Source of the DNA: a candidate division WOR-3 bacterium
Lineage (GTDB): Bacteria > Hydrothermota > Hydrothermia > UBA1063 > CAJXJZ01
NCBI GenBank assembly: GCA_026986775.1
Contig: JALSNX010000030.1
Location: 79,483-143,482, forward strand
Length of the DNA stretch: 64,000 nt
Direction: 5' to 3'
Made by a program: the position numbers and the translations under genes. Positions 17,960-40,529 of this stretch are shown here, piece by piece (within the stretch, counting starts at the first letter, position 1; each line of letters opens with the position of its first letter). Below the pieces are notes generated by a model. That model was not told the origin of the DNA. It saw only the letters and a program-made list of their open reading frames with translations, and searched no databases.

Positions 17960-20824
17960 ATGAAATATCTGTTATTATTGTGGCTTATTGGATTTTTGAA
18001 TGCACAGGGTTATGAAGATATTGTGATAAAGGACACGATAGGATTAATAAGGGAACTTCCCAGAAGGGGAAAAGGATATAGCGTATGTATTGATACTGGA
18101 GGCAATTATGTATTCGCAGGTTATGCTGAAGAGCCGTATGATGCGTGGCTGGTGAAGTACAACTCTCAATTGCGTGATACTGTATGGATGCGGTTTTATG
18201 GGGGAGACGGGGATGATAGAATATACGATATGGCAATAGACAGCATGGGAAGTTATGTTTTGGTTGGTTATACCGAATCTTATGGTGCAGGCGGAAAGGA
18301 TGTGTGGATTTTAAAGATTGATCCTGAGAATGGTGATACGATATGGACGGATGTACTGGGTGGTGGAAATGATGACATTGCGTATGGAATAACTGTTGAC
18401 AGGGATGGGAACTATGTTATTACGGGTGAAACAAAATCATATGGCGATGATAATGGAGATTGTTTTATCCTGAAGATGAGGCCGAATAAGGACGCAATAT
18501 GGTTTAGAAGATACGGAACAGATCTGGAAGATGGCGGTTATGATATTGCCGTTGATACATCTGGAAATTATGTTGTGGCAGGACTTTATAATTTTGCATG
18601 GGAAAGTTCTTGGGGTGATGTATGGGTTTTGAAAATAGAATCTGATAGCGGTGATACTATATGGACACACAATTATGGTGATTCACAGGGTCAGATAGGT
18701 TATGGAATAGTGGTTGATGATAGTAACAGGTATGTTGTATCCGGGAAAACTTATCTTCCCGGGGCCAATGACAATGTATGGGTATTAAGGATTGATTCAC
18801 AGACAGGAGGACTGTTATGGGAGAGAAATTATGGTGCAGATGGAGGTGAAAGGGGATACAGTATTGTGCAGGATGTTGATGGGTTTTATATCATTGCCGG
18901 TTTTACTGCATCTTTCGGAGAGGGAGGACTTGATGCATGGGTTGTGAAAATAAGCCCTTCCTCCGGTGATACGGTGTGGACACATACGTATGGAACGGAA
19001 GATGACGATAGGGCAGAGGATATAATAGTGGTAAATGACAGTCTTTACATGATGTGCGGGTTTGATGCATCCCATTTTACAGCAAGAGAGATTAAAAGCA
19101 GTGATGGAACAGTATCTGATAGCATGGATTTTTCCATAAAACGGCTGGATATGGCCGCACTGGATGATAGAGGCTATGGTATTGCACTGGATTCATCAGG
19201 TTTTTATGTTATTACGGGTTATTCTGGAACCTATGAAACAGGTGAGGATGCATTGATTGTAAAGTATGATCCACAAATACATGACACTGTCTGGGCAAAA
19301 TTATATGGTGGAAGTGGTAATGATGGATGTTACGCCGTGAGTGTGGACAGAATTGGCTACTATGTTCTGGCGGGTTTTACGGAATCAGAAGGTGCCGGGG
19401 GCAAAGACTTCTGGGTTCTAAAGATATCTCCTCTTGATGGTGATACTATATGGACAAGACATTATGGAGGCAGTAGTGATGATGTTGCAAAGGGTATTGC
19501 AATTGATGATGACAACAATTACATTATTGTGGGGTACACAAAGTCTTATGGGGCAGGAGGAGGTGACCTCTGGATTTTAAAGATAAATTCTCAGAATGGG
19601 GATACTATCTGGTCCCGTATTTATGGTGGTAGTGAATTTGAAGGAGGAAATGGTGTTGCTGTGGATACTGCCGGTGATTATATAGTGTGTGGAAATACAT
19701 GGACCTATGACCCTGGAAACCTTGAAAATGTCTGGATCTTGAAAATAAATCATGAAACGGGTGATACCTTATGGACAAAGAGTTATGGGGACGAAGGGGG
19801 GCAGTGCGCTTTTGATGTGATTGTAGATAGAGACGGTAACTATGTTATTTCCGCAAAAACAACTTTTCATTACACGGATGATGTGTGGGTTTTAAAGGTA
19901 AATCCCATAACCGGGGATACATCCTGGACAGTGCATTACGGAACAGATAGAAATGAGAAGGGGTACAGTATCGCACAGGATAGGGAAGGATACTATGTTG
20001 TGGCGGGCTTTACGGACAAAAGGGGCACCAATAATCCGGATTACTATATTGGTAAAATCTCTCCTGATTCCGGAAAGTTGCTTTTTACAAGGAGATTAGG
20101 AGGAAATGGTGTTGACCGTGCGGAAGGAGTAATCGTTGACGATGACAGTTTTTATGTGGTGATTGGTTATTCAAATTCAACGTACAACGGGGATTATGAT
20201 GTTTATCTCGTAAAATACAACCCGTGGGATGAGAATCCACCAGTTATAGATAGTGTGACACGGATTGAAGATGATGATACCTACCCATACGGTCCCTATG
20301 AGATATGGGCTACAATAATGGACTCTTATTCCGGAGTAATTGAAGCGGTTTTACACTGGAAAACCGAACTTGATACATATTACAGGGATGTGGTTATGAC
20401 TGGTACACCATATAGCAAATTCAGGGCAACCATTCCAGAGATATTTACAACCATTGATAGCCTTAAATTGTTTTACTATGTAACAGCGAGAGATGGTGCA
20501 GGCAACGAGGCTGTTTCTGATACCCATGATTTTTATATCATAACAACATCTCATATAAAGGAGAAGCAGAATAACAGTGATATAGTTGTAAAAATGCCCT
20601 CCATTGTCAGAGGGAACAATTTAAAAGTATTGCTTTCCCTTAAAGAAGGCACAGAATACAGTCTGAGTGTGTTTTCAAAAGTTGGCAGGCTTGTTTGGTC
20701 AAAGCATGATGTTTTTACCTTCAAAGAAAATACTTTTCTTATGCCCGAATTTAAAAGAGGCGTTTATTTTCTTGAAATAAGGACCAAAAACAAAAGAAGA
20801 ATAGTGAGGTTTGTTGTAATTTAG
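17960..20824 (+). CDS. secreted T9SS cargo protein: SBBP-like beta-propeller repeats, one ~107-aa pre-CTD domain, T9SS C-terminal sorting domain
   Basis: Signal peptide MKYLLLLWLIGFLNAQG. About 14 repeats of ~47 aa with the pattern D.WxLK.D...GDTxWT..YGG...D.A.xI.VD.DGNYVxxG.T.SYGAGG. The C-terminal ~75 aa (SLSVFSKVGRLVWS...RGVYFLEIRTKNKRRIVRFVVI) fits a type-A Por secretion tail. Confidence 0.85.
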   Translation: MKYLLLLWLIGFLNAQGYEDIVIKDTIGLIRELPRRGKGYSVCIDTGGNYVFAGYAEEPYDAWLVKYNSQLRDTVWMRFYGGDGDDRIYDMAIDSMGSYVLVGYTESYGAGGKDVWILKIDPENGDTIWTDVLGGGNDDIAYGITVDRDGNYVITGETKSYGDDNGDCFILKMRPNKDAIWFRRYGTDLEDGGYDIAVDTSGNYVVAGLYNFAWESSWGDVWVLKIESDSGDTIWTHNYGDSQGQIGYGIVVDDSNRYVVSGKTYLPGANDNVWVLRIDSQTGGLLWERNYGADGGERGYSIVQDVDGFYIIAGFTASFGEGGLDAWVVKISPSSGDTVWTHTYGTEDDDRAEDIIVVNDSLYMMCGFDASHFTAREIKSSDGTVSDSMDFSIKRLDMAALDDRGYGIALDSSGFYVITGYSGTYETGEDALIVKYDPQIHDTVWAKLYGGSGNDGCYAVSVDRIGYYVLAGFTESEGAGGKDFWVLKISPLDGDTIWTRHYGGSSDDVAKGIAIDDDNNYIIVGYTKSYGAGGGDLWILKINSQNGDTIWSRIYGGSEFEGGNGVAVDTAGDYIVCGNTWTYDPGNLENVWILKINHETGDTLWTKSYGDEGGQCAFDVIVDRDGNYVISAKTTFHYTDDVWVLKVNPITGDTSWTVHYGTDRNEKGYSIAQDREGYYVVAGFTDKRGTNNPDYYIGKISPDSGKLLFTRRLGGNGVDRAEGVIVDDDSFYVVIGYSNSTYNGDYDVYLVKYNPWDENPPVIDSVTRIEDDDTYPYGPYEIWATIMDSYSGVIEAVLHWKTELDTYYRDVVMTGTPYSKFRATIPEIFTTIDSLKLFYYVTARDGAGNEAVSDTHDFYIITTSHIKEKQNNSDIVVKMPSIVRGNNLKVLLSLKEGTEYSLSVFSKVGRLVWSKHDVFTFKENTFLMPEFKRGVYFLEIRTKNKRRIVRFVVI

Positions 20825-20842
20825 AAAACAAGGGAGGTTTTT

Positions 20843-23800
20843 ATGAAAAGGTTAATTGTAATACTCTTCATGGTATCACTACTCAAAGCCCAGAACTTCG
20901 GGGATGTTATCCTTGAGGATACCTTTGGGCTATATACTCCGGGTTCCGGGAATGGGGTAGCATGGGATGATCATGATAACACGGTAATCATAGCAGGTTA
21001 TAAAAGGGCTCATGGTTCGGCTGTAAAAAAAGGATGGCTTATTAAATATGACCCGTTAAGTGATGATACGATCTGGAGCAGGTTCTATGGCAATTATAAG
21101 TATGACTTTTTCAACGATGTGGCTTATGATCCTTCGGGGTATTATGTGGCAGTGGGTGCTTCAGCTACATCTTCAAGTGTTGATTTCTGGATTTTGAAAC
21201 TGACTACTGATGGAAATGTTGAATGGCAGGGAATATACGGGAATCCTTCGCTTTATGATGAAGCAAAGGCAGTTACGCTTGATAGTGCTGGTGATTATGT
21301 TGTGGTGGGATATGAAAGAGATTCAGACGGTGTAGATAAAGCGGCGATTTTAAAGATAGATGCTAACACTAATGATACTGTGTGGACAAGAGTTTACAAT
21401 ACACCGGACACGAGCCGTCTTTATGATGTTTTCATTGACCCCAATGGATATTATGTAGGGGTTGGAGAGATTTACGAGGCAGGATACGGATGGAAAATGG
21501 CGCTTTGGGTGATAGCACCTAACAATGGTGACATTGTGGGCGGAGATGAATACGGCACAAGTGGGAGCAATCACAGGGGCCGCTGTGGCCTTATGAGTTC
21601 TGATAACAACTTCATTATTGCAGGCTATACGGATGTAAATGGCGACAAAGACTATGAAATTTTGAAAATAAAATATTCCGACTTTAGTGTTATATGGGAT
21701 AGCACTTATGCTATCAGCGGAGATCAGGAGGCATGGGAGATAACGAGAATAAATGAGGATGTTTATGTTGGAGGGTACTCTTCGGAAAAAGGAAATAAAG
21801 ATGGCTTTATGATGGTAATAGACGATGGATTTGGCAGAGTTGTAGATATGGACCTTAATGGTTTATCTGATGTTGATGACTGGGAAAAAAGTGTCGTCGT
21901 GTATCAGGATACCATCCTCAGTGTGGGTGGAAGCGAAAATGAGCATCTTCTTACACATATAAGGCATTCCCAGAATATCAGAGACAGTCATCTAAAAGAC
22001 CTGTCTCTGCGTATAGGTTATGAGGATAGAGCATATGCCATTGCCATTGATTCTTCTGGAAATTACATTATAGTGGGAAATACCCATTCGCCCGATGATG
22101 CAGACCACTGGCAGATACTGGCTGTAAAATACGACCCTGTACAGGATAGAGTTTTATGGTGGAAAGTTTACAGTCAGAGATGGGGGGACAGTAAAGCCAA
22201 TAAAGTTATTGTTGATAGAGACGGATATTATGCTATAGCGGGTTATACTGTAAACTCTTCGGGAAATAAAGACGTATGGGTTTTGAAACTCAATCCCAAT
22301 ACGGGTGATACTGTGTGGACAGGGGTCTTTGGTGGTGACAGTGACGAAGTTGCAATGGACATAATAGAGGATTTAAACGGTGATTATGCAGTTGCAGGTT
22401 ATACTACATCTTATGGTGCAGGCCGGGAGGATGGCTGGCTTTTGGTGCTTAATGCTTCAACGGGAGATACTCTTTATACAAAAACATACGGTGGTTCCGA
22501 GTATGATGTATTTAACGCAATAGCAGAGGATAATGGTTATTACATTCTGGCAGGTGTATCTTCCGAACTGCACGGGTGGGGTGATGACTGGATTTTAAAG
22601 GTTGATGCTCAAAATGGGGATACTGTGTGGCAAAGATACTATGGGGACCAAGAGGGTCAGATTGCCTATGATGTTATTGTGGATAGAGACGGTAACTATG
22701 TGGTAGGTGGTAAAACATATACAAATTCCACCCAAGATGATGTCTGGGTTTTAAAGATAGAGAGCGATAGCGGTGACACAATATGGACAAAGTCCTACGG
22801 AGGCTCAGATTCAGAAAGAGGCTTCAGCATAAGAGAGGATAAGGAGGGCTTTTATGTGATAGCAGGTTTCACAAGGTCATATGGTGCAGGCTCGTCAGAT
22901 TACTGGGCTTTAAAACTTGACCCCGAAAATGGTGCTACGCTGGGCCAAAAAACCTTCGGTGGTACAGGGGATGACATGGCAGAGTGTGTATCAGTGGATG
23001 ACAGCAACCATTATGTCATAACAGGTTTCTCCAATTCCACCACTACAGGTGGTTATGATTTTTACACCGTAAAAATATATCAGGGCGATAACCTCCCGCC
23101 AGTGTTTGATTCAATAACGCAACTTCCTAATGACACAACCCTGCCATTCGGGCCCTATCAGGTGGATGTTAAAATAACGGATAATCTTTCGGGGGTTGAC
23201 AGAGGCAGGCTGTACTGGAAGTCATCCGAAGATGCTGATTTTTCCTACAGTTCTTTGACATACAATACTAACAACTGGTGGGGTGCAAGTATTTCGGAGA
23301 TAAACATTACAGGAGATAGTGCCCTCGTCTATTATTATGTTGATGCTTATGATTCCGCAGGAAATTATGGAGTATCGGATACTCTCAGTTTCTGGGTCAT
23401 AAAGCCCGACACGGAGCCACCTTTAATAGATTCTCTTACACAGGTGGATAAAGACACAACCATTCCTCATGGCCCTTATGAAGTAAGGGTAAAGGCATGG
23501 GATGAATATAGGGGCGTAAACAATGTTCGTCTTTACTGGAAGGATGAGGCATCAAGTACATTTACGGAGAGTTTCATGGACAGTCTCGGTGGTGACTGGT
23601 GGGTAGATTCCATACCGGAGCAGGTATTAAACAACGACAGCACGGTGATTTACTACTATGTTATAGCAGAGGACAATGCTGGCAATACGAGTTATTCGGA
23701 TACCATTTCATTTCGGGTAATAGACCCTGACACAACGGTGCCTCAAATAGATTCATTAACACAACTTGAAAAAGACACCACCATACCGCATGGACCCTAC

Positions 23801-26800
23801 GAGGTTATGGTGAAGGCATGGGATAATTATAAAGGCATGGGCAATGTTGAGTTCTACTGGAAGAGCGCAGGAGATACTGTATTCACCGAGAGTTTCATGG
23901 ACAGTCTCGGTGGTGACTGGCGGATAGATTCCATACCGGAGCAGGTATTAAACAACGACAGCACAGTTATTTACTACTATGTTATAGCAGAGGACAATGC
24001 AGGCAATACGACTTATTCAGATACCCTTTCATTCTGGGTAATAGACCCGGATACAACTATACCTCTTGTGGATAATCTCACACAACTTGAAAAAGATACA
24101 ACCATACCGCATGGCCCCTATGAAATCAAGGTGGAGGGCTATGACAATTACAAGGGCCTTAATAGTGTAAAACTTTACTGGCGAAGAAATACAGATACTG
24201 TTTTTAATGAAAGTTCCATGATTGATTATGATTCAACACATTACTGGGTAGACTCTATACCTGAACAGGTACTTAATAACGATAGTGTTGAGATTTATTA
24301 CTATGTAATGGCGGAGGATGTGGGTGGCAACCGTGCGTACACGGATACCCTCTCTTTCTGGGTAATAGACCCTGACACAACGGTGCCTCAAATAGATTCA
24401 TTAACACAACTTGAAAACGACACCACCATACCGCATGGACCCTACGAGGTTAAGATAAAGGCATGGGATGATTATAAGGGTATGGGCAATATGAAGTTTT
24501 ACTGCAAGAGCGCGGAGGATACTGTATTCACAGAGAGTTTCATGGATAGTCTTGGTGGTAACTGGTGGGTGGATACGATACCGGAAGAGGTATTAAACAA
24601 CGACAGCACAGAGATTTATTACTATGTTATAGCAGAAGACAATGCGGGCAATACGAGTTATTCGGACACCCTCTCTTTCTGGGTAATAGACCCCGACACA
24701 ACAGTGCCAGAGATAGATTCATTAACGCAAATTGAAAAAGACACCACCATACCGCATGGACCCTACGAGGTTAAGGTGAAGGCATGGGACGATTATAAAG
24801 GCATATCAAATGTTAAGTTCTACTGGAAAAATGATGCATCTGGAACATTTACGGAGAGTTTCATGGACAGTCTCGGTGGTAATTGGTGGGTGGATTCCAT
24901 ACCTGAGCAGGTATTAAACAACGACAGCACAATAATTTATTACTATGTTGTAGCCGAAGATATAGGCGGCAATATTACCTGTTCGGATACCTTGAGTTTC
25001 TGGGTAATAGACCCCGACACCTTACCACCTGAAATTGACTCACTCACGAAGGTTTTAAGCGATACTACCTTACCTTTTGGACCCTATGAGGTTAAGGTGA
25101 AGTCATGGGATGAGTATGGTAGTATTCAGGATGTAAAATTCTACTGGAAAAACGATACAATGTCTGATTTCACAGTGGGGAATATGGCATATCTGGGTGG
25201 GGATTGGTGGGTAGATTCTATACCACAGCAGGAATTTGCCGCCGACAGTATGTCTATTCTTTACTATGTGGTATCAGAGGATAGTGCAGGCAATTCAACC
25301 ATAACAGATACCATGAGTTTCTGGATGGTAAAGCCCGACACGGAGCCACCTTTAATAGATTCTCTCACGCAGGTGGATAAAGACACGACAATACCTCATG
25401 GTCCTTATGAAATAAGGGTAAAGGCATGGGATGAGTACAGGGGCGTAAGCAATGTTCGTCTTTACTGGAAGGATGACACATCAAGTACATTTACGGAGAG
25501 TTTCATGGACAGTCTCGGTGGTGACTGGTGGATAGATTCCATACCGGAGCAGATATTAAACAACGACAGCACAGTTATTTATTACTATGTTATAGCCGAG
25601 GACAATGCCGGTAATACGAGTTATTCGGATACCATTTCATTCTGGGTAGTAGACCCTGATACAACAGTACCACAGATAGATTCAGTGACACAGCTTGAAA
25701 GAGACAATAACCCACCTTACGGGCCATATGATGTATGGAGCAAGGTAAAAGATGAATACAGGGGACTTGCTGATGTTGAACTCTACTGGAAAAAGGAATC
25801 CCAGCCGGCATTCATACAGGTTTCTATGTCAGGGACTTCAGATGACTGGTGGTACGGTAGTATACCCGAGCAGACGCTTGATACTGATAGCATAAGAATT
25901 GTTTACTATGTAAAAGCAACCGATCTGGGAGGAAATACTTCATATTCTGATACTTTGAGTTTCTACATAGTAAAACCCGATACCATGGCTCCTCAGATAG
26001 ATTCCCTTACACAGGTTGATAACGACTCAACCGCTCCTTATGGTCCCTATGAAGTCAGAGTGAAGGTGACAGACCTTTACAAGAAAGCAGGAAGTCTATT
26101 TGGTAAAGGTGTGTTAAAAGACATAAAGGACAAGGAGACATCACAAGTGAAACTCTACTGGAAACTGGAGACAGAGGCCGTTTTCAACGAAAACAGTATG
26201 GCTTATCTTGGTAACAACTGGTGGATAGACAGCATTCCAGAGGAGAGTTTCAGCACAGATAGCGTAAGAGTTCTTTATTATGTGAGTGCCATGGATGATG
26301 CCGGTAATACTTCATATTCGGATACCCTGTCATTCTGGCTTATAAAACTTGATACCGTAAAACCTGTAATAGATACGGTTACACAGATTGAAAGGGATTC
26401 GGTGCCTCCTTATGGCCCCTATGAGGTATGGGTAAATGCCACAGATAACAAAGGAGTAAAATACACAAGGCTTTACTGGAAAAGGGCATCTCAGCCGGCA
26501 TTTGTTCAGATTGATATGAACCATGCAGCAGGGAACTGGTGGGTTGATAGTATTCCAGAGCAGACACTCAATCAGGATAGCGTATTGATACTATACTACG
26601 CTGAAGCAGTTGATTCTTCGGGCAATACATGTATTTCGGACACATTGGGGTTCTGGATTGTAAGCCCTGATACAATGCCGCCTGTGATAGATTCCCTTGC
26701 TCAGATTGAAAATGATACAATGCCACCCTATGGCCCTTATGAAGTTAGAGTAAAAGTTACAGATAGTAGAAAAGGACAGGTTGTTTTCGGCATTTATAAA

Positions 26801-28009
26801 AACAATAAGCATATTGCCTTATTGAATGGTAAAGATGCATTTCTTGATAAATCAGCAGGAAAAGGTGTAGGAAGTGTGAAACTTTACTGGAAAAACGACC
26901 AGGATGCTGTATTCCATGAAAGCGATATGAGCCTCCAGAGTGGTGACTGGTGGATAGATACAATACCACAGCAGAGTCCTGCTACGCATACCATGGGTGT
27001 TATATATTATGTCAAAGCTACAGACGAGGCGGGTAATACGGCTTATTCTGATACATTGAGTTTTGTTATAGTCACACCCGATACAACACCGCCGGTAATA
27101 GACTCCCTTACACAACTTGAAAACGATACTACATTCCCGCATGGTCCGTATAATATAGATGTCAAGGTAATGGATGATTACAGGGGCGTTTCAGGTGTAA
27201 CGCTTTACTGGAGAACCTCACTGATGTCTGACTTTTCACACGATGCCATGGTTAATATCTCAGGCAACTGGTGGCATGATACGATACCGCAGATTGACTT
27301 TACCAGTGTTGATAGTGTTGAGATTTTCTATTTCGTGACTGCAGCTGACTCATCTTCAAATATGTCTGTCTCGGACACTTTGAGTTTCTGGGTAATAAAC
27401 CCCGATACCACACCACCCGAGATAGATTCCCTTACACAGATAGAAAACGACTCAACCTCTCCTTATGGACCCTATGAGGTCTGGGTTAAGGTGGTGGATG
27501 GTTATACGGGTGTGGACAGTGTTAAATTGCTCTATAAGAAACAGTCTCAGCCTGCCTTTGTAGAAAGTAATATGAGTTATGTTGCTCAGAACTGGTGGGT
27601 GGATACAATCCCTGAACAGAGCCTTCAGGCGGAAGATAGTGTAATAGTTATGCTCTACTACATATATGCCATTGATAATGCCGGAAATGAAGTCGTCTCT
27701 GATACTCTGAGTTTTGAACTGATAAATCCGGAATATCTAATAGAAGAAGGGAAGTCTATCACACAATTTGGCGTGAAAATCCCGTCCGTGTGCAGAAACA
27801 GATTGAGTTTTGTCTTTATGGCGCCGTCTTCAGATATATACAGCGTAAAAGTATATTCTGTAAACGGCAGGCTCTTATTCAATGACAGAGGAAAAATAAA
27901 GAGAGGATTGACACTCATGAATCTTCCGCTGCATAAAGGTGGTCTTTACTTTGTAAGGATAAAATTCCATGGAAAAACATACTATGGAAAGGTTCTTCTG
28001 GTAAAATGA
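20843..28009 (+). CDS. giant (2388 aa) T9SS cargo protein: SBBP-like propeller repeats plus 14 tandem ~107-aa repeats plus T9SS C-terminal domain
   Basis: Signal peptide. N-terminal repeats are as in the 17960 gene. From about aa 748 there are 14 in-frame tandem copies of PDT.xP.IDSLTQ.EKDTTIPHGPYEVKVKAWD.YKG..NVKFYWK....FTESFMDSLGG.WWVDSIPEQVLNNDST.IYYYVIAEDNAGNTSYSDTLSFWVID. The C-terminus (YSVKVYSVNGRLLFND...GGLYFVRIKF...KVLLVK) is T9SS CTD-like. It is 18 nt downstream of the previous gene and probably co-transcribed. Confidence 0.85.
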   Translation: MKRLIVILFMVSLLKAQNFGDVILEDTFGLYTPGSGNGVAWDDHDNTVIIAGYKRAHGSAVKKGWLIKYDPLSDDTIWSRFYGNYKYDFFNDVAYDPSGYYVAVGASATSSSVDFWILKLTTDGNVEWQGIYGNPSLYDEAKAVTLDSAGDYVVVGYERDSDGVDKAAILKIDANTNDTVWTRVYNTPDTSRLYDVFIDPNGYYVGVGEIYEAGYGWKMALWVIAPNNGDIVGGDEYGTSGSNHRGRCGLMSSDNNFIIAGYTDVNGDKDYEILKIKYSDFSVIWDSTYAISGDQEAWEITRINEDVYVGGYSSEKGNKDGFMMVIDDGFGRVVDMDLNGLSDVDDWEKSVVVYQDTILSVGGSENEHLLTHIRHSQNIRDSHLKDLSLRIGYEDRAYAIAIDSSGNYIIVGNTHSPDDADHWQILAVKYDPVQDRVLWWKVYSQRWGDSKANKVIVDRDGYYAIAGYTVNSSGNKDVWVLKLNPNTGDTVWTGVFGGDSDEVAMDIIEDLNGDYAVAGYTTSYGAGREDGWLLVLNASTGDTLYTKTYGGSEYDVFNAIAEDNGYYILAGVSSELHGWGDDWILKVDAQNGDTVWQRYYGDQEGQIAYDVIVDRDGNYVVGGKTYTNSTQDDVWVLKIESDSGDTIWTKSYGGSDSERGFSIREDKEGFYVIAGFTRSYGAGSSDYWALKLDPENGATLGQKTFGGTGDDMAECVSVDDSNHYVITGFSNSTTTGGYDFYTVKIYQGDNLPPVFDSITQLPNDTTLPFGPYQVDVKITDNLSGVDRGRLYWKSSEDADFSYSSLTYNTNNWWGASISEINITGDSALVYYYVDAYDSAGNYGVSDTLSFWVIKPDTEPPLIDSLTQVDKDTTIPHGPYEVRVKAWDEYRGVNNVRLYWKDEASSTFTESFMDSLGGDWWVDSIPEQVLNNDSTVIYYYVIAEDNAGNTSYSDTISFRVIDPDTTVPQIDSLTQLEKDTTIPHGPYEVMVKAWDNYKGMGNVEFYWKSAGDTVFTESFMDSLGGDWRIDSIPEQVLNNDSTVIYYYVIAEDNAGNTTYSDTLSFWVIDPDTTIPLVDNLTQLEKDTTIPHGPYEIKVEGYDNYKGLNSVKLYWRRNTDTVFNESSMIDYDSTHYWVDSIPEQVLNNDSVEIYYYVMAEDVGGNRAYTDTLSFWVIDPDTTVPQIDSLTQLENDTTIPHGPYEVKIKAWDDYKGMGNMKFYCKSAEDTVFTESFMDSLGGNWWVDTIPEEVLNNDSTEIYYYVIAEDNAGNTSYSDTLSFWVIDPDTTVPEIDSLTQIEKDTTIPHGPYEVKVKAWDDYKGISNVKFYWKNDASGTFTESFMDSLGGNWWVDSIPEQVLNNDSTIIYYYVVAEDIGGNITCSDTLSFWVIDPDTLPPEIDSLTKVLSDTTLPFGPYEVKVKSWDEYGSIQDVKFYWKNDTMSDFTVGNMAYLGGDWWVDSIPQQEFAADSMSILYYVVSEDSAGNSTITDTMSFWMVKPDTEPPLIDSLTQVDKDTTIPHGPYEIRVKAWDEYRGVSNVRLYWKDDTSSTFTESFMDSLGGDWWIDSIPEQILNNDSTVIYYYVIAEDNAGNTSYSDTISFWVVDPDTTVPQIDSVTQLERDNNPPYGPYDVWSKVKDEYRGLADVELYWKKESQPAFIQVSMSGTSDDWWYGSIPEQTLDTDSIRIVYYVKATDLGGNTSYSDTLSFYIVKPDTMAPQIDSLTQVDNDSTAPYGPYEVRVKVTDLYKKAGSLFGKGVLKDIKDKETSQVKLYWKLETEAVFNENSMAYLGNNWWIDSIPEESFSTDSVRVLYYVSAMDDAGNTSYSDTLSFWLIKLDTVKPVIDTVTQIERDSVPPYGPYEVWVNATDNKGVKYTRLYWKRASQPAFVQIDMNHAAGNWWVDSIPEQTLNQDSVLILYYAEAVDSSGNTCISDTLGFWIVSPDTMPPVIDSLAQIENDTMPPYGPYEVRVKVTDSRKGQVVFGIYKNNKHIALLNGKDAFLDKSAGKGVGSVKLYWKNDQDAVFHESDMSLQSGDWWIDTIPQQSPATHTMGVIYYVKATDEAGNTAYSDTLSFVIVTPDTTPPVIDSLTQLENDTTFPHGPYNIDVKVMDDYRGVSGVTLYWRTSLMSDFSHDAMVNISGNWWHDTIPQIDFTSVDSVEIFYFVTAADSSSNMSVSDTLSFWVINPDTTPPEIDSLTQIENDSTSPYGPYEVWVKVVDGYTGVDSVKLLYKKQSQPAFVESNMSYVAQNWWVDTIPEQSLQAEDSVIVMLYYIYAIDNAGNEVVSDTLSFELINPEYLIEEGKSITQFGVKIPSVCRNRLSFVFMAPSSDIYSVKVYSVNGRLLFNDRGKIKRGLTLMNLPLHKGGLYFVRIKFHGKTYYGKVLLVK
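23085..27730 (+). repeat. array of 14 tandem ~321-nt coding repeats; several copies are nearly identical at nucleotide level
   Basis: For example, 23380-23640 and 25300-25560 differ at only a handful of positions (ttctgg.t..taaagcccgacacggagccacctttaatagattctct.ac.caggtggataaagacac...). Copies near the array ends are more divergent, including two with insertions (around 26060 and 26760). Confidence 0.9.
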
Positions 28010-28024
28010 GGAAAACTAAGCAAA

Positions 28025-28052
28025 CAGAGCCCCCATATAAGGGGGCTCTTTA
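28025..28052 (+). terminator. intrinsic terminator candidate after the 2388-aa gene
   Basis: agagccccc-atataa-gggggctct hairpin followed by TTTACTGTTTTA. Confidence 0.55.
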
Positions 28053-28060
28053 CTGTTTTA

Positions 28061-28149
28061 TGACACATTGCTGTGACATGAATGGTCACAGTTTAACATG
28101 TTGTTATGTAAGGAGTTTAATTCTGGGGTGTGACATGGAGTTATGACAT
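28061..28149 (+). promoter_or_regulatory. second cluster of GTGACAT-type sites (inverted repeat CTGTGAC-N7-GTCACAG; direct GTGTGACATG / ATGACAT)
   Basis: The sequence tgacacattgCTGTGACatgaatgGTCACAG lies at 28061-28091. The sequence GTGTGACATGgagttATGACAT lies at 28128-28149. These share their half-site with the 17767-17866 cluster. The cluster sits about 60-150 nt upstream of a sigma-54-like promoter. Confidence 0.5.
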
Positions 28150-28210
28150 TTTGAGTATTGATTTTATTGGTTTTAAAGGTGTTGGTTGTAAATCAATAAC
28201 TTATGTACTA

Positions 28211-28225
28211 TGGCTTGAAAATTGC
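28211..28225 (+). promoter_or_regulatory. sigma-54-type -24/-12 promoter candidate, TGGCTT-N5-TTGC
   Basis: tggcttgaaaattgc has GG and GC at exactly the consensus spacing, with two mismatches in the -24 hexamer. The GC is 27 nt upstream of the ATG at 28252, which has an AAAGGAGG RBS. Confidence 0.5.
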
Positions 28226-28251
28226 CGTAATACTGCAAAAGGAGGTTTTTT

Positions 28252-31200
28252 ATGAGGCGTTTTGTATTAGCCATACTTTTATCTATGGGATTTCTTCTGG
28301 CAGCAGGAGAGTCCGATATTATGTGGCAACAGACCTTCGGGTCTGATACCGATGATGTTTTTTACAGTGTATCTGTCTGGGACAGCACTCCTTATTATTA
28401 CATTGGTGGAGCTACCATGGCTGGCGGAACGAACTACGACTACTGGATTTTGGCCCTTGACCCTGGTAACAGTTCACCTGTGTGGGAATATACTTTCGGT
28501 GCCGGTGGTCATGAGCAGGCCTACGGCATATCAAATGGTTATGCTCCGGGTTATGGAGGGTTTATAGCCACCACCGGATACACATATTCCTATGGGAATG
28601 GGCAAAACGACTTAATGTCGCTTGCCATGACAGCAGGTGGTAGTTTTCTGGATACCATGCTTATAGGTGGTGCAAGTTATGATGTAGGCTACAGCGTTTT
28701 TGCCGGAGAGGATGGTACCTATGTTGATGCGGGAAGAACACACAGTTATTCTGGTGATGGAGATATGATAGTTACCAAATATATCCTGGCTGACGGCCAC
28801 ATTATTGACACCATCTGGTCACAGGTGTTTCATGCGTCAGATTCCTTTGATGTAGCAACTTCAGTTATAAGGTATCAGGATGTTGATATTGTTGGTGGAT
28901 ATACTAATGGAACTGGCAATTACGACGGGATTATACTTGTTCTGAGTGACTCTTCAGGTGAGAGAGTCGCCGATTACGAATTCAGGGGTTCTGGTAATGA
29001 TTATATCAAGGCCCTTACAGTGGATAGAGATGGCAACATAATTGGTGCTGGATATTCAACAACAGACAGTCATGGTGGTGACGATGTCTGGATTTTTAAA
29101 ATGGCGCCAGATGGCACGGTTTTATGGGATAAAAAGTATGGTGGTCCTCTTGATGACAGGGCAAACAGTGTATTCATTGATTCAAACGGAAATGTTGTTA
29201 TTGGTGGGTACACGGAAAGTTATGGACAGGGAAATGAGGATTGCTTTATCCTCTCTGTGAACCTTGTAGATGGAAAGCCAAACTGGTACAGGGTTTATGG
29301 AGGCTCGGGAACGGATATCCTGTATGGTTCCACACTCGGAAACAAGGGAGAGGGTGTGTTTGTTGGAAAAACTTCGTCTTTTGGTGCAGGTTCCTATGAT
29401 GGCTGGATTATAACGATGAACCTTGATGTTACTCCGTTAAGGATAAGTGGATTTGTTCCCCGTGTGATACCTCTTTCCACCACGAGAAAAATTTATGTGT
29501 ATGGAACCGGATTTTCAGGCTACGATGCAGGTGAGATAAACATAAACTTTGTTGATGCGTCAGGTGTCGTGCAGGCTGCGGTGCATCCTGATGAGGTGAT
29601 TTCTGATGATGAACTTGTGGCAACTGTAAACCTTTCGGGTATCCCCACTGGTTCCTACAGTGTATATATTGATGCAGGAGGAATAGTTACTACCGATACA
29701 CTAAAAGGTGTGGTTTATGTTATAAATCAGGGCGCAGATGAAAAGTATTTGAGTTATGTTAATGTGGGCAGCACGGGACCCATAGGAACCATGGCATCAG
29801 GTGATGCTGACAACGATGGCAGGATAGAACTTTACGCAGGTGGAGGCTATTATCTGGGAAGCACGCTTTACTATCCCCTTATGAAGATAAGTGGCAGTGG
29901 CGGTGGACTTTCAGTTGATACAATATGGAGTATCCGCACAGGTGCCCGTGCGATTGTTATAAGTGATGTTGATATGGATGGGAAAAATGAGATGTACATA
30001 GGTTATGGTGATTTCTCAAGTGGAACTGTTTCCAGACTCAGATGGAATGGCACCTCATGGACGGAAGATACCGTATTGAATACTGATTATGTAATTATGG
30101 GGCTTGATGCGGGCAGCATTTATGGACAGAGTAAAAGGTCACTTTATGCAGTATCCTATGACAGTACATTCTATGAGATTACAAAAACAGCTTCAGGATA
30201 CAGTAAAGACACATTTATGGTTTCAGGTTATGGTGCTTTCATAGATGTGAAATTGGGAGACCTTGAGAGGGATGGTAAGGTAAAGGCCTATGTATCAACT
30301 GCAAGTGGAAAGATTCTGGAAATAAAAAGGGATAGTTATGGCAATTTTGTCTATACCACTATTTCCGAATCTCTAATTAAAAACATAGGAACGATGGGCA
30401 GGCTCTATATAACCGATGCTGATAATAATGGGTATGAGGAACTCTATGCTTCCAGTGTTGTAGGAGTTTATGATGATATTTTTGATCTTAAGATAACATA
30501 CAATAGCGGTGCTTTTGTATTTGATACCATTGGCAGGGAGTTTATTGACTTAAGAACACAGATTATAGTTGAGGACTTAAACGGTGATGGAAAGGTAAAC
30601 CTGTACGGTACGGGATGGTATCACGGTTTTTACAAAGAACCTCTGGAAGATGGCAGTTGGGCATGCGGTGTGGGTTCGGTTTATAATGCCACAATGGAGC
30701 CGGGACAGGCGGCAGGTTATGTTGACCTTGATGGTTCGGGAAATCTCACCATATTTGCAGGCGGCGCAGGTATGCTTTACAGACTTGTGCCCCAGAATAC
30801 AGCACCACAGTTTAAAACCCTTGAGGTGTTTAAATACTTCCCACAGACTGCACCCGAAAATAAAGACTTTAAACTTGTCGTATACGGCAGGGGATTGAAC
30901 AATGCACAGGAAGTAAGACTTGAAGGTGATGCGGGAAGTTTTTCCGGAACGATAGACAGCCGATATTATCCGCGCATTGTGGTTTCTTTTAACGGGATGC
31001 CCGAAGGACACTATAACCTTCTGGTTGTCTCTGCATCCTCAACGGATACAATAAGGGATGCTGTATGTATAAATAAATCCACTTATTATCCTGATGGGAC
31101 CGCCCATATAAGGATTGATACCATGTTTTCCACACCTTCTGGTGTGCCACTTTACAGTCTTGTAAAGGGTGACCTTGATAAGGATGGCCATGTAGAACTT

Positions 31201-34200
31201 TATGCAGGAAGCGCAGGAAAGATATATAAAATCTATAAAGACCCAGTTGCAGACTCTGTTAATATTGAAGATATAGGACTGACATTTTCTTACGATGTCA
31301 GAACCCTTCTTTATGGCGATGTTGACAATAGCGGAGAGAAGAAACTCTTTTACAGGGACAGTATGGATATGGGAGTTATATATTACGATGGCTCATATCA
31401 TAAGGTTTCTTTCCACAAATATCCCAATAATGCATCAGGGTATCTGACAGATAATATAAACCTTGTGGATTTGAACGGTAACGGGTTCAATGAACTTGTT
31501 AATATGTCCTATAACGGACTTCTCAATCTGTTTGAGATATATCAGGACAGTTTTGTGCTTTCAAACACAAAGAGGATATTTACGTCAAATAGTTTTTATA
31601 CAGATGTTGATTATGGAGCTTTTGTGGGTGCACCAGATAATATGGAACTTTATGTCACGGGGACAGATGCATGCTCTGGTAGTTACTGTGATGGTAAGAT
31701 AAAGAGGATAAAATACAACTATGACCTGTGGCAGGTAATTGATGTTTATTCAAATACAGAACCCTATACCATTACCCTATCTCCCATGAAAGTTCTTGCA
31801 GATGATACAGGCAATGACGAATTATTCTTCTTTGATATGGCTGATACTGCTGTATATAGAATGACATACGGTGGCAGTGGGTATTTGAGTACAGGGGTGC
31901 ATACAACGCTGGAAAGTGAACTTATTTTTGACAGGGCTGACCTTGATAATGATGGAACTGTAGAATACTGGGGCATTGGTGATTATTATCTTCGTGAATT
32001 TCTGCTGACGGGTTCTTCCTTTACCACTGTGGACAGCGTGTATTTACCGGATGTAAATGATATTGCAGGATTTGACCTTGATGGGGATAACAAACTTGAG
32101 ATGTATGCCATAACCAGCTATGGAAAAGTTTTAAAGATACATAAAGTTTTTAAGAAGAAATTGAGGGTAAGAAAAACTGACCCTGTAATATTCTCCCGTG
32201 CCTCTGAGGATTCTCTCATTACTATTTTTGGTGGCGGATTTACACTGTTTGATAAAGATTCTTTGAATGTTAACCTGATTGATAAAAACGGTAATTCAGT
32301 CATGGTACTCAATCCGGACACAGTAATGAGCTATACGCGGCTTTCACTTCATTTACCTGTTTCTGCCATCAACCCCGGATGGTATGATATGGTAATTTCT
32401 TATGATACGATAAAATCGGATACTTTAAAAGATGCTGTGTTTATTTCAGGAGAGCCTTTAAAACATTATATATACAGAGTTGATACTATTGGACGTATTG
32501 CCTCGTCGTTAAGATGGTATATTACGAAGGCGGATATGGATGGGGACGGAAGGATGGAATACTATGTACATGATGATGGACATATATACAAAATCACCTA
32601 TAATTATGGCTCACATGCATGGAGTATAAGCACAATTTACACAGGCAATTTGTATGTTTCAAGTCTTGTGGCAGGAGATATGGACCATGATGGTAAGATG
32701 GAACTGTATTTCAGTCCCTTTGCTACAACTCCAACTCCTGTTTACTGTATAAAAATGGAGGCGGATACATACAGAGTAGATAGTATAAGTTATTTCTCCT
32801 CTGGAGCGAAAATAGGCATAGGCGATGCCGACAACGACGGTGAGGATGAACTTCTGGGTTACTCTGTGCATGGTGTTCTGAATGTATTAAACTTCAGAGA
32901 TTCCACATGGGAGAGAAAGACTTATACCATTGAAAGCGTTGCCGCTACTTCTGATATAGTGGTGGCAGATGTGGATAATGATGGATTCAATGAAATCTAT
33001 ACTTACGGTGCGCCTTCAGGACAGACAGATGCAGGTCTTATAAAGATAACACTCGCACCTTATTTAAGTTCAGAATATGTTTACGTAGATTACAATATTG
33101 CAGTGGGTGGCATAAAAATCTATGATATTGACGGCGATGGACAGGAAGAACTCTACACAGGTAGTTATGGCAGTGATGGTAAAACTACGATTTACCTATT
33201 TAGATATTTAAATTCAGGGTATTATTCCTCGGAAGTCATGAAGAATGAAGGTCTTGCAGGAGATATAGGTGTCGGTGACCTTGATAATGACGGTAAAAAC
33301 GAGATTGCCGCTGGTTTTTATTCGCTGCTTGAAATGGTAAAAGAAAATAATGATTACAAACGGATTATAACCGGCATTGATACCATAGTGGGTATTCTCC
33401 CAGCAAGTATAAATGACACCACAAGACTTGACATGCTCGTAACCACCAGAAGCGGTTATCTTGTTCACATCAGTCAGGAGCCCTTACCGATTGATTCTGC
33501 TGTATCAGTAAATGGACTCCTTACATCCATTATTCCTGTTGGTGATTCACTGATAACCGTTTTATATGGCAAAAACCTGAACAATGTGCAGAATATATAT
33601 GTTGAGAAGTCACAGGGCAGTTACCAGAAGGAGGCCACCATTTTAGAGGTATCTTCAGGTGGAAACTATGCAAAGATTGTAATACCGCCTCTTGACACAG
33701 CAGGTTACTACAATGTTATTGTCCACGGTAATGGTGATGATACACTTTACAGCGGGCTTCTGGCTAATAATATCTATTCAGAAACGGATAATGGAATTGT
33801 AGAGATAGATACTTTGAAAGATATAGGTGGAAGAAAGCATAAAGACACCTACTACTATATGAGTATAACCTCAGTTGACCTTGATAAAGACGGCAAGAAA
33901 GAGGTGTATGTCGCAGGAGACAGTTTGTGGACTGTGGACTATGTTGGTGATACCTTTGTGGTAAATTCAATTATGGACATTCCGGGAGTGGCAAACTGCA
34001 TAACATACGGCAGATTCATGAAGGATACGGTATCCCTCTTTGTGGGGACCACTTCAGGTGAAATCTATGAATTGTCACCGAATGATACGGGCTTTACCAT
34101 TTTGAAGGTATTTGACCTTTCCATGGCAGGGCTTTCTTCTTCAATAACAAATGGTATAAAGATAATGGATGTGGACAACGATAAAAACAATGAACTTATA

Positions 34201-35802
34201 GCAGGGTGGGGTAATGGGATGGTTGCGATTTTAAAAGAAAATAACAGTGATATTGACCTTTACATCACTGAATTGCATTCATCTTCAGTTGTGAAATCCA
34301 TTGACATAGGAGATATGGACAGGGATGGCACAAACGATGTTTATGTTAATACTTACGGAACATCGGCCTACCTGAATGATATCCATTATTCTGATACAGG
34401 CTATGTGAAATCAAATATATTCTCTCTTGGAAGTGCAGCGGATATTGGAAAAATAGGGGATATAAACAAAGATGGAAATAGCGAAATTGCAGTTGCCAAT
34501 CACGCTTATCTTTATCTCGGAAGTTACAACAGCGGTTCCTGGAACCTTGACACGGTGATGTCTTCTGGAGGCTCTTACATATTCAGGACTGCGATATTCA
34601 CGGACTTTAAAAATACAGGGAGCAATGACCTTATTGTATCTCACTCAAGCCATCGTCTTTTAAGAGTTGTATCTCATGGTGCAGATTCTTTTGAAATAGA
34701 TACGCTTGTTAGTTTCAGCGATGCAGAACCCATGGATATGACTGCCTGTGACCTTGATAAAGATGGTGAGGTGGAAGTATATGCAGTAAATGGTTCTGGC
34801 AGGATTTTTAGAATAGCATATGTGCATGACACCCTGCCTCCTTCCATGGTAAACATTGTATATCCACAAAACAATACCTGGTTTACAGCAGTGCCTGACA
34901 GTTTCCTATTTATCTGGAACAGCGTAAGTAAGATTGTGAATACCAGAAGGAATAGTATAAAATTTGCTAAATTCACCTTTATGGATTATCCGGATGAAAA
35001 AGGGGTGACACCCGTTAACTATATTGTGGAAATTGCAAGAGACTCTTTATTTGACACCATAACCATGATTGATACCACCTCTGATACAGTATATGTTATT
35101 GCCAAAAAATCTCCTCTTGGAGAGGAAAATTACTTTAGAGTCAGGGCATTTGACCTTGCCGGAAATGAAGGTCCGTACAGTGAGGTTGTAAGATTTGGAA
35201 TTGACAGTATTGTGCCTGTTATTGATTCTGTTACCATACTATCAGATACCACTTACGAGGGACCATTCAATATAGCCATAGGTGCCCATGATGTGCCATC
35301 GGGAATTGATTCTGTTATTCTTTTCTACAGGAGAATGGAGGATACAGCGTGGATAATGGCTCTGGCGGTGCGTGATACACAGGATGTTTACATTGCCACA
35401 ATTCCCGAGGTGAATCTGCAGAACGACTCCGTTAAATACTATATTAGTGTTTCTGATTATGCACATCTTTCTGACACTGCGCCAGCGGGTGCACCTTATG
35501 TTTACTATGAATTTATTGCATCGGGTATAGGTGAAACAAACAGGATAACCCGCTTTGAGATGAATGTTCCTGTGGTATCTGAAAACACGGTGAGATTCAG
35601 TCTAACTGTGCCGGAAAAACAGAGAATAGGTCTGAATATATACGATATACAGGGGAGGAAGGTTATTACCGTGTTGAACAGGAGGCTCTTGAGAGGAAAA
35701 TATACATTCAGTGTCGCCAATCTGAAAAGAGGGGTGTACATTTATCATCTCAGATACGGGAACCGCAGGTTTAATGGCAAATTTATCGTAGTGGGTAAAT
35801 AA
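28252..35802 (+). CDS. giant (2516 aa) T9SS cargo protein: N-terminal propeller-like repeats, four [IPT/TIG-like plus FG-GAP repeat block] modules, one ~107-aa pre-CTD domain, T9SS C-terminal domain
   Basis: Signal peptide MRRFVLAILLSMGFLLAAG. About 25 integrin-alpha-like FG-GAP motifs (GDADNDGRIELYAGG, GDLDKDGHVELYAG, ADVDNDGFNEIYTYG, CDLDKDGEVEVYAVNG and others). Four IPT-like segments (e.g. PLRISGFVPRVIPLSTTRKIYVYGTGFSG). The C-terminus VRFSLTVPEKQRIGLNIYDIQGRKVITV...KRGVYIYHLRYGNRRFNGKFIVVGK matches a Por secretion tail. Confidence 0.85.
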   Translation: MRRFVLAILLSMGFLLAAGESDIMWQQTFGSDTDDVFYSVSVWDSTPYYYIGGATMAGGTNYDYWILALDPGNSSPVWEYTFGAGGHEQAYGISNGYAPGYGGFIATTGYTYSYGNGQNDLMSLAMTAGGSFLDTMLIGGASYDVGYSVFAGEDGTYVDAGRTHSYSGDGDMIVTKYILADGHIIDTIWSQVFHASDSFDVATSVIRYQDVDIVGGYTNGTGNYDGIILVLSDSSGERVADYEFRGSGNDYIKALTVDRDGNIIGAGYSTTDSHGGDDVWIFKMAPDGTVLWDKKYGGPLDDRANSVFIDSNGNVVIGGYTESYGQGNEDCFILSVNLVDGKPNWYRVYGGSGTDILYGSTLGNKGEGVFVGKTSSFGAGSYDGWIITMNLDVTPLRISGFVPRVIPLSTTRKIYVYGTGFSGYDAGEININFVDASGVVQAAVHPDEVISDDELVATVNLSGIPTGSYSVYIDAGGIVTTDTLKGVVYVINQGADEKYLSYVNVGSTGPIGTMASGDADNDGRIELYAGGGYYLGSTLYYPLMKISGSGGGLSVDTIWSIRTGARAIVISDVDMDGKNEMYIGYGDFSSGTVSRLRWNGTSWTEDTVLNTDYVIMGLDAGSIYGQSKRSLYAVSYDSTFYEITKTASGYSKDTFMVSGYGAFIDVKLGDLERDGKVKAYVSTASGKILEIKRDSYGNFVYTTISESLIKNIGTMGRLYITDADNNGYEELYASSVVGVYDDIFDLKITYNSGAFVFDTIGREFIDLRTQIIVEDLNGDGKVNLYGTGWYHGFYKEPLEDGSWACGVGSVYNATMEPGQAAGYVDLDGSGNLTIFAGGAGMLYRLVPQNTAPQFKTLEVFKYFPQTAPENKDFKLVVYGRGLNNAQEVRLEGDAGSFSGTIDSRYYPRIVVSFNGMPEGHYNLLVVSASSTDTIRDAVCINKSTYYPDGTAHIRIDTMFSTPSGVPLYSLVKGDLDKDGHVELYAGSAGKIYKIYKDPVADSVNIEDIGLTFSYDVRTLLYGDVDNSGEKKLFYRDSMDMGVIYYDGSYHKVSFHKYPNNASGYLTDNINLVDLNGNGFNELVNMSYNGLLNLFEIYQDSFVLSNTKRIFTSNSFYTDVDYGAFVGAPDNMELYVTGTDACSGSYCDGKIKRIKYNYDLWQVIDVYSNTEPYTITLSPMKVLADDTGNDELFFFDMADTAVYRMTYGGSGYLSTGVHTTLESELIFDRADLDNDGTVEYWGIGDYYLREFLLTGSSFTTVDSVYLPDVNDIAGFDLDGDNKLEMYAITSYGKVLKIHKVFKKKLRVRKTDPVIFSRASEDSLITIFGGGFTLFDKDSLNVNLIDKNGNSVMVLNPDTVMSYTRLSLHLPVSAINPGWYDMVISYDTIKSDTLKDAVFISGEPLKHYIYRVDTIGRIASSLRWYITKADMDGDGRMEYYVHDDGHIYKITYNYGSHAWSISTIYTGNLYVSSLVAGDMDHDGKMELYFSPFATTPTPVYCIKMEADTYRVDSISYFSSGAKIGIGDADNDGEDELLGYSVHGVLNVLNFRDSTWERKTYTIESVAATSDIVVADVDNDGFNEIYTYGAPSGQTDAGLIKITLAPYLSSEYVYVDYNIAVGGIKIYDIDGDGQEELYTGSYGSDGKTTIYLFRYLNSGYYSSEVMKNEGLAGDIGVGDLDNDGKNEIAAGFYSLLEMVKENNDYKRIITGIDTIVGILPASINDTTRLDMLVTTRSGYLVHISQEPLPIDSAVSVNGLLTSIIPVGDSLITVLYGKNLNNVQNIYVEKSQGSYQKEATILEVSSGGNYAKIVIPPLDTAGYYNVIVHGNGDDTLYSGLLANNIYSETDNGIVEIDTLKDIGGRKHKDTYYYMSITSVDLDKDGKKEVYVAGDSLWTVDYVGDTFVVNSIMDIPGVANCITYGRFMKDTVSLFVGTTSGEIYELSPNDTGFTILKVFDLSMAGLSSSITNGIKIMDVDNDKNNELIAGWGNGMVAILKENNSDIDLYITELHSSSVVKSIDIGDMDRDGTNDVYVNTYGTSAYLNDIHYSDTGYVKSNIFSLGSAADIGKIGDINKDGNSEIAVANHAYLYLGSYNSGSWNLDTVMSSGGSYIFRTAIFTDFKNTGSNDLIVSHSSHRLLRVVSHGADSFEIDTLVSFSDAEPMDMTACDLDKDGEVEVYAVNGSGRIFRIAYVHDTLPPSMVNIVYPQNNTWFTAVPDSFLFIWNSVSKIVNTRRNSIKFAKFTFMDYPDEKGVTPVNYIVEIARDSLFDTITMIDTTSDTVYVIAKKSPLGEENYFRVRAFDLAGNEGPYSEVVRFGIDSIVPVIDSVTILSDTTYEGPFNIAIGAHDVPSGIDSVILFYRRMEDTAWIMALAVRDTQDVYIATIPEVNLQNDSVKYYISVSDYAHLSDTAPAGAPYVYYEFIASGIGETNRITRFEMNVPVVSENTVRFSLTVPEKQRIGLNIYDIQGRKVITVLNRRLLRGKYTFSVANLKRGVYIYHLRYGNRRFNGKFIVVGK

Positions 35803-35803
35803 A

Positions 35804-36028
35804 ATGCAGAACCTCGTTGTAAAGGTCAGAGAGGGAGAGATTGTATTTAAAAGCGCCGTCCTGAAAGGTGCCGACATTAAGATTTACAGGGAGGATGGGG
35901 AAATGGTATTTGCAAGGGAGAACCATCCCATAGACCACCTCACTGTGAAGAATCTGAAGAAGGGTGTGTATAAATACACAATAAACTCAGGCGGGCAATC
36001 TCTTTCAGGGAGGGTGGTGGTGATATAA
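35804..36028 (+). CDS. orphan T9SS C-terminal-domain-like small ORF (74 aa) with no signal peptide
   Basis: The ATG lies 2 nt after the giant gene's TAA, in a different frame. The sequence VVKVREGEIVFKSAVLKGADIKIYREDGEMVF...KNLKKGVYKYTINSGGQSLSGRVVVI has the strand pattern and terminal hydrophobic residues of a Por secretion tail. There is no obvious RBS. Confidence 0.4.
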   Translation: MQNLVVKVREGEIVFKSAVLKGADIKIYREDGEMVFARENHPIDHLTVKNLKKGVYKYTINSGGQSLSGRVVVI

Positions 36029-36034
36029 ATTTAT

Positions 36035-36094
36035 GGGGCCCTCCGGCTTCCCCCCACACGATACCCATCTTTCGGAGGGCCCTTCTTTTTTATT
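36035..36094. terminator. bidirectional intrinsic terminator between convergent genes
   Basis: ggggccctccg...cggagggccc forms a 10-bp GC stem with a long loop. It is followed by TTCTTTTTTATT on the plus strand and by an A/T-rich run on the minus strand. It sits between the stops of the 35804 ORF and the sigma-54 activator gene. Confidence 0.6.
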
Positions 36095-40426: not shown

Positions 40427-40480
40427 ACGGATATTATAAAGACTTTCAGAGAGTTTATGAAGCGGTTATTTTTACTATTC

Positions 40481-40509: not shown

Positions 40510-40529
40510 AATTTAAAAAGGGGGAGACT

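Follow-up and report, generated by a model that had tools for sequence, protein, structure and literature searches.

Why does the same domain of about 107 residues stand immediately before a type IX secretion system (T9SS) C-terminal domain (CTD) in three neighboring proteins, once in two of them and 14 times in the third, and what does it do there? The proteins, here called A, B, and C, are encoded in a 64-kb stretch of contig JALSNX010000030.1 (assembly GCA_026986775.1, a candidate division WOR-3 bacterium), referred to below as the window. A first-pass annotation described the domain as a conserved module shared by three otherwise different cargo proteins and proposed a family-specific stalk or spacer, or a recognition element for T9SS processing. 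The analysis below relates the domain to the immunoglobulin superfamily (IgSF) domain of PPAD from Porphyromonas gingivalis, and its role is probably that of a modular stalk or spacer with variable copy number.

Proteins A, B, and C and their repeats

The three genes are consecutive and lie on the + strand. The N-termini of the proteins resemble signal peptides (MKYLLLLWLIGFLNAQG, MKRLIVILFMVSLLKAQN, and MRRFVLAILLSMGFLLAAG, as read from the translations). Proteins and immunoglobulin-like (Ig-like) domains are listed with the evidence used; ORF is open reading frame, HMM is hidden Markov model, AF2 is AlphaFold2, and pLDDT is its per-residue confidence score.

17960–20824, + strand: protein A, 954 aa, with putative signal peptide, SBBP/PQQ-like beta-propeller repeats, one Ig-like domain, and T9SS type A CTD (ORF list, translation, Pfam PQQ_2/SBBP/Por_Secre_tail)
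20240–20557, + strand: single Ig-like domain of A, aa 761–866 (B-copy HMM E 6.2e-29; pLDDT 85–98 here in an AF2 tandem model)
20843–28009, + strand: protein B, 2388 aa, with putative signal peptide, A-collinear propeller repeats, 14 Ig-like domains, and CTD (ORF, BLASTP of A against B)
23099–27739, + strand: array of 14 tandem Ig-like domains in B, aa 753–2299 (HMM, alignments, Tandem Repeats Finder period 321)
28252–35802, + strand: protein C, 2516 aa, with putative signal peptide, propeller-type repeats at aa 16–390, TIG and FG-GAP/VCBS repeats, one Ig-like domain, and CTD
35215–35520, + strand: single Ig-like domain of C, aa 2322–2423 (B-copy HMM E 2.5e-11; family profile E 2.3e-18; alignment)

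The 381 stop-to-stop ORFs of the window were all scanned with an HMM built from the 14 copies of B. This HMM matched A at aa 761–863 over model positions 1–103 (E 6.2e-29, 95 bits) and C at aa 2322–2404 (E 2.5e-11, 38.6 bits). Besides A, B, and C, the sole ORF under E 0.01 was a fourth T9SS cargo at 51073–55689. When the A and C copies were cut out and scored on their own, they reached 102 and 47 bits, and about 2000 residue shuffles of each reached at most 12.3 and 9.8 bits, respectively. The single copies are thus related to the tandem repeat, as the first-pass annotation had proposed, and its placement of them at about 20220–20540 and 35215–35500 is in line with the boundaries found here. 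The C copy is a variant with a longer last loop (TAPAGAPYVYYEF). Directly before it lies a beta-sandwich-like segment (34810–35214, C aa ~2187–2321) that ends in RAFDLAGNEGPYSEVVRFGID. The pairing of this segment with an Ig-like copy recurs in a database fragment (P0001), and the family profile matches the segment only at E 0.3.

The 14-fold amplification in the 2388-aa protein was likewise borne out. The copies are arranged head to tail, and 12 of the 14 measure 106–108 aa. Copies 2–6 and 8 are the youngest (63–93% identity), and Tandem Repeats Finder picks up only the array's youngest stretch (period 321, 7.2 copies). Copies 10 (25991–26362) and 12 (26681–27091) carry Lys/Gly-rich inserts of 17 and 30 aa in the same loop; these are retained in the orthologue of a sister assembly (93–95% identity). 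In a neighbor-joining tree, all 14 B copies group together with the A and C copies outside, and copy 14, which is adjacent to the CTD, is not specially near the A or C copies. This clustering indicates amplification within the B lineage, or later homogenization.

The description of A, B, and C as otherwise different did not survive. A 2–861 aligns collinearly with B 3–853 (BLASTP, 37% identity, E 2e-142), an alignment that runs through the first Ig-like copy, and the tail of A aligns to the last copy and CTD of B (BLASTP). The Ig-plus-CTD tails of A (761–954) and C (2322–2514) align at 30% identity (BLASTP, E 2e-14). C has N-terminal propeller-type repeats (aa 16–390) in common with A and B, and its TIG and FG-GAP repeats lie between these and the Ig-plus-CTD tail. 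Judged from sequence, A, B, and C are paralogous surface proteins, with A and B collinear paralogues.

Copy number differs among relatives. A syntenic locus (L003) in assembly GCA_054027995.1 (JBPMJC010000035.1) has the same three genes, with 10 copies in B instead of 14. The window B gene is longer by 1284 bp, exactly 4 × 321 bp (DNA alignment; 23741–25027), and copy-by-copy comparison identifies the extra copies as B3–B6. This difference reflects either a recent gain or loss of four units or collapse in one short-read assembly. The longest exact DNA repeat within the array is 58 bp, which makes a correct short-read assembly of the array plausible, though unproven. Among relatives that share this head and tail, the count is 1, 2, 5, 10, or 14 copies, with 5, 2, and 1 in the more distant ones. 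The A, B, and C genes share ~92.5% DNA identity between the two assemblies (18467–38000), and the downstream sigma-54 activator and kinase genes are 98–100% identical; the surface proteins therefore diverge faster than the neighboring genes.

Fold of the unit and its relation to PPAD

The fold was predicted with AF2 from the alignment of all 16 copies. The single-domain model is all-beta with nine strands (pLDDT 85.6; overall confidence score pTM 0.79), and the ~107-residue unit is accordingly modeled as an Ig-like nine-strand beta-sandwich domain. In a Foldseek search of the PDB, ranks 1–7 were all P. gingivalis PPAD entries (E 9e-4 to 3e-3, TMq 0.52–0.63), followed by fibronectin type III (FN3) domains at E 0.009 or weaker. 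PPAD was also the top PDB sequence match of a profile of the 16 window copies, at a marginal E of 0.009. A family profile was then built from 145 copies, one each from 142 proteins of an exhaustive database search and one each from A, B, and C. This profile matched PPAD chain residues 321–408 at E 1.7e-12 (50 bits).

The crystallized PPAD fragment comprises A44–A475 (PMC4487231). Chain residues 321–408 therefore correspond to PPAD 364–451 and fall within the IgSF domain, G360–E465. The same paper describes that domain as a nine-strand sandwich of 106 residues, ~50 Å long, directly before the CTD. Together, the fold and profile matches to PPAD assign the unit to an Ig-like family that includes the PPAD IgSF. 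Structure prediction thus leads from the repeat to the pre-CTD domain of a known T9SS cargo, a comparison that the first-pass annotation had suggested.

Searches of domain databases returned no dedicated Pfam or NCBIfam model for the family, using single copies and the 145 members as queries. No Pfam family scored above cut-off on single copies (best Big_3_4, E 0.022). Whole protein B gave summed partial matches to Big_3_4, Big_13, and Big_7, with summed scores of 55.7 and 49.6 bits that exceed the cut-offs. Among the 145 members, minorities matched Big_7 (24 at E ≤0.01), DUF7743 (12), CBM_56 (12), and GlgE_dom_N_S (11), and one member each matched CBM25, CBM26, CBM48, and CBM53, none above cut-off. 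The only NCBIfam match was barrel_OmpL47, in 12 members and below cut-off. The PPAD IgSF fragment itself has no Pfam match above cut-off; its best is CBM_56 (21 bits vs 27, E 3.7e-4). An identity as FN3 was rejected: neither the proteins nor the single copies matched Pfam fn3, and the resemblance is at the fold level only.

Position before the CTD and distribution

The tails of A, B, and C were delimited as follows, with TIGR04183 scores given against the cut-off of 23 bits.

20558–20587, + strand: linker from Ig-like domain to CTD of A, aa 867–876 (AF2 tandem model; gap 15 residues)
20588–20821, + strand: T9SS type A CTD of A, aa 877–954 (TIGR04183, 28.0 bits; CTD profile)
27773–28006, + strand: T9SS type A CTD of B, aa 2311–2388 (TIGR04183, 31.9 bits)
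35560–35799, + strand: T9SS type A CTD of C, aa 2437–2516 (TIGR04183, 34.1 bits)

The Pfam tail model PF18962 scored under its cut-off of 27 in all three (A 20.7, B 15.3, C 26.2). From the end of the Ig-like model to the start of the CTD there are 15 (A), 16 (B), and 21 (C) residues, and the first-pass observation of single copies directly before the CTD in A and C stands. The linkers lie at ~20558–20587 (A), 27740–27772 (B), and 35521–35559 (C). In the closest subfamily (A, B, C, and nine homologous tails), the otherwise variable linker of 11–23 residues contains a near-invariant Glu. This Glu could belong either to the linker or to the N-terminal motif of the CTD.

The last 200 residues of A were modeled with AF2 from 12 homologous Ig-plus-CTD tails. 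This tandem model has two confident beta-sandwiches joined by residues with pLDDT <50 (model 112–119, A 866–873). Its pTM of only 0.57 suggests that the Ig-like domain and CTD have no fixed mutual orientation. Gingipain RgpB offers a parallel: its IgSF and CTD are joined by a disordered 9-residue linker and have no fixed orientation by small-angle X-ray scattering (PMC4804311). Foldseek with the two-domain model returned generic tandem FN3/Ig pairs only, with poor TM scores. The RgpB IgSF-CTD pair was not among them, which is expected of a flexible pair.

A 74-aa ORF (35804–36028, + strand) follows C in a different frame, starting 1 nt past its stop codon. Lacking a signal peptide, it comprises nothing but a T9SS type A CTD-like domain (TIGR04183, 25.3 bits vs 23; 31% identical to the C CTD), and may be an orphan or remnant CTD. 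Unusual conservation of this ORF was considered and rejected: the sister assembly matches it at 100% identity, but the DNA around it is likewise 98–100% identical.

The distribution of the domain was surveyed in metagenomes. A word-index homologue search with the 16-copy alignment gave one match, P0001, a fragment with the same Ig-plus-CTD tail. The exhaustive profile search covered 1.84 billion cluster representatives and found 2268 at E ≤1e-3 and 456 at E ≤1e-10, many of them giant proteins with 10 to >20 copies. The last 95 residues of the best 150 of the 2268 proteins were compared with NCBIfam. T9SS tails were of type A in 29, type B in 5, and type C in 5; other ends were MYXO-CTERM (25), the related GC_trans_RRR model (13), and JDVT-CTERM (4), and many more proteins end in membrane-anchor-like or other sequences. 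In 17 of 30 T9SS-tailed homologues the last copy lies 11–27 residues before the CTD, and in the other 13 the two are 55–914 residues apart. Terminal copies often find their best match in an internal copy of the same protein or of a related one. CTD-adjacent copies as a separate subtype or clade were ruled out by the tree and by this best-match test.

The search for the domain in other T9SS cargo, here within the window, led to the fourth cargo, protein D, which has two copies, neither adjacent to its CTD.

51073–55689, + strand: fourth T9SS cargo (D), 1538 aa, with Cleaved_Adhesin, lamin-tail (LTD), MAM/InhA-like, FlgD-Ig, and Por_Secre_tail/CTD (Pfam)
51763–52008, + strand: Ig-like copy 1 of D, internal, near the N-terminus (family profile E 2.1e-18)
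54673–54897, + strand: Ig-like copy 2 of D, ~175 residues (gap 174) before the CTD (family profile E 6.6e-9)
55432–55686, + strand: CTD of D (TIGR04183, 43.1 bits vs 23)

As far as the surveyed sequences go, a position directly next to the CTD is frequent without being required. The varied anchors, the internal copies, and the 13 of 30 homologues with a distant CTD make the family a general module of surface proteins that is not specific to T9SS. The term family-specific is therefore not supported for a domain with 2268 representatives, whose best 150 include 25 MYXO-CTERM proteins and JDVT-CTERM or other ends beside the 29 with T9SS type A tails.

Proposed role and comparison with known systems

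The domain is probably a modular stalk or spacer in the A, B, and C surface proteins. Each protein would consist of a signal peptide, a beta-propeller-type head, one or more Ig-like domains, and a T9SS type A CTD joined on by a short flexible linker. By analogy with P. gingivalis (PMC5445135, PMC4804311), export by Sec would be followed by translocation through the T9SS, the CTD would be cleaved off within the linker, and the new C-terminus would be attached to the cell surface. The Ig-like domain would thereby form the membrane-proximal base, a passive spacer between the head on one side and the CTD and membrane on the other. Unequal recombination in B may have produced a stalk of 14 units carrying the propeller-type head outward, with a reach of up to ~70 nm for units stacked end to end at 5 nm each, the length of the PPAD IgSF. 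Copy number would set the projection distance of the head and could shift fast between relatives. This role is assigned because it fits the fold and the tandem amplification, and because the IgSF domains of PPAD and RgpB offer a precedent. The stalk or spacer of the first-pass annotation is thus retained; its alternative, a recognition element, found no specific support.

Several points weigh against this assignment. Surface anchoring, the site of CTD cleavage, and a rod-like shape are carried over from P. gingivalis and from tandem Ig-like stalks in general. A purely passive spacer leaves the narrow linker length (11–23 residues) and the near-invariant Glu of the closest subfamily unexplained. 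The weak, sub-threshold CBM_56 matches of 12 of the 145 members and of the PPAD fragment leave room for a binding role. The difference of 14 vs 10 copies rests on short-read assemblies. T9SS machinery genes (PorK/L/M/N, Sov/SprA, and PorU/V) were not seen in the scanned parts of the window.

The repeats could instead be binding modules for glycans or other surface ligands, in which case amplification in B would raise avidity; this is an unlikely but not negligible reading. It draws on the sub-threshold Pfam matches to GlgE_dom_N_S and to carbohydrate-binding modules (CBM_56 and the single CBM25/26/48/53 matches), of which CBM_56 recurs equally weakly in the PPAD IgSF fragment. A biofilm-associated surface protein (7dm0, E 2e-4) ranks second among the PDB sequence hits, and conserved aromatics include WW and YY motifs. 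However, all CBM matches fall under the curated cut-offs and concern a minority of members, the conserved aromatics may just form the sandwich core, and family members stand behind many different heads. The excerpts of PMC4487231 mention no binding function for the PPAD IgSF.

Slightly less likely still is that the CTD-adjacent domain is a functional part of the T9SS signal, so that Ig-like domain, linker, and CTD act as one cassette that presents the cleavage site to a PorU-type sortase or is checked by the machinery. In its specific form, with a PPAD-type Ig-like domain, a length-restricted linker, and a type A CTD co-inherited in this lineage for secretion and anchoring, and the Ig-like domain needed for sortase presentation, the proposal is equally doubtful. 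The spacing of 11–27 residues in A, B, C, and 17 of 30 homologues would fit it, as would the restricted linker of the closest subfamily with its near-invariant Glu. In RgpB, moreover, the length of the IgSF-CTD linker decides attachment of A-LPS (PMC4804311). The BLASTP alignments among A, B, and C also cross the Ig-like domain and CTD as a single block, but this follows from paralogy alone. Against a cassette, non-T9SS anchors are also found in the family (25 of the best 150 carry MYXO-CTERM), and the last copy is 55–914 residues from the CTD in 13 of 30 homologues and likewise non-adjacent in D. Terminal copies are nearest to internal copies of the same or related proteins, not to each other, and they form no CTD-adjacent clade. 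The CTD alone has been described as necessary and sufficient for secretion, including that of heterologous proteins (PMC10202324). These observations also tell against the first-pass proposal of a recognition element for T9SS processing.

That the A and C copies resemble the B repeat by chance or through composition, for which nothing speaks except low pairwise identity (25–42%), is ruled out by HMM matches of E 6e-29 and 2.5e-11, reported over the full model length, by scores of 102 and 47 bits against at most 12 bits for shuffles, and by an independent database search that recovers C (P0150) and homologues of the same layout.

Through the PPAD IgSF, a large group of surface-protein repeats (2268 representatives in metagenomes) gains a name and a structural reference point. 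An uncultured lineage is shown to have the layout of an Ig-like domain before the CTD that is familiar from virulence factors of Porphyromonas, and a clean four-unit difference in copy number is documented between two close assemblies. Natural variants with 1, 2, 5, 10, and 14 copies, adjacent to or distant from the CTD, provide material for testing a role in processing. No new mechanism is revealed.

The flanks of the locus (89–12500 and 36093–44261) are rich in signaling genes, including three Ser/Thr kinases, PP2C, FHA domains, and an FHA-GAF sigma-54 activator. They also encode tetratricopeptide repeat proteins and two ankyrin-repeat proteins, and an Rnf-type complex is found from 58377 onward. 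The valyl-tRNA synthetase has only about 50–53% identity to those of the GTDB representative genomes retrieved, a scan with it gave 49–53% across many phyla, and no relative turned up when genomes were scanned with protein A.

The arrangement adds a new case to a known pattern in which an Ig-like domain precedes a T9SS CTD, as it does in PPAD and in gingipains. The PPAD IgSF is the nearest counterpart: it is homologous (family profile E 1.7e-12) and the best fold match to the predicted model, both are nine-strand sandwiches of similar size (106 vs ~107 residues), and it sits between the functional part of the protein and the T9SS CTD (PMC4487231). In PPAD, however, a single IgSF is packed on the catalytic domain as the "root" of a tooth-shaped molecule, whereas here the domain follows propeller-type repeats, has short Pro/Asp/Thr linkers, and occurs in up to 14 copies.

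Gingipains share the order of Ig-like domain, short disordered linker, and type A CTD (RgpB IgSF-CTD and Kgp IgSF, PMC4804311). As the tandem model suggests for A, the orientation of the RgpB domains is not fixed, and the spacer or insulator proposed for its IgSF resembles the role suggested here (PMC4804311). The gingipain IgSF is shorter, ~35 Å vs 50 Å (PMC4487231), and the RgpB and Kgp IgSF domains are absent from the PDB profile matches (E ≤1) and, for both models, from the top 50 Foldseek hits.

The Pfam families Big_3_4, Big_13, and Big_7 match the C-terminal half of the domain partially, but none of these models describes the family. The stalks of giant adhesins such as SiiE and Bap are likewise long arrays of ~100-residue beta-sandwiches with variable copy number, and both appear among the fold and weak sequence matches (SiiE, 2yn3 and 2yn5; Bap, 7dm0, the hit of the family profile given above). 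Adhesins of this type use other export and anchoring routes, and their linkers are stiffened by Ca2+. Compared with such Ca2+-stiffened linkers, the conserved Asp residues of the present repeats are only suggestive of a role in binding Ca2+.

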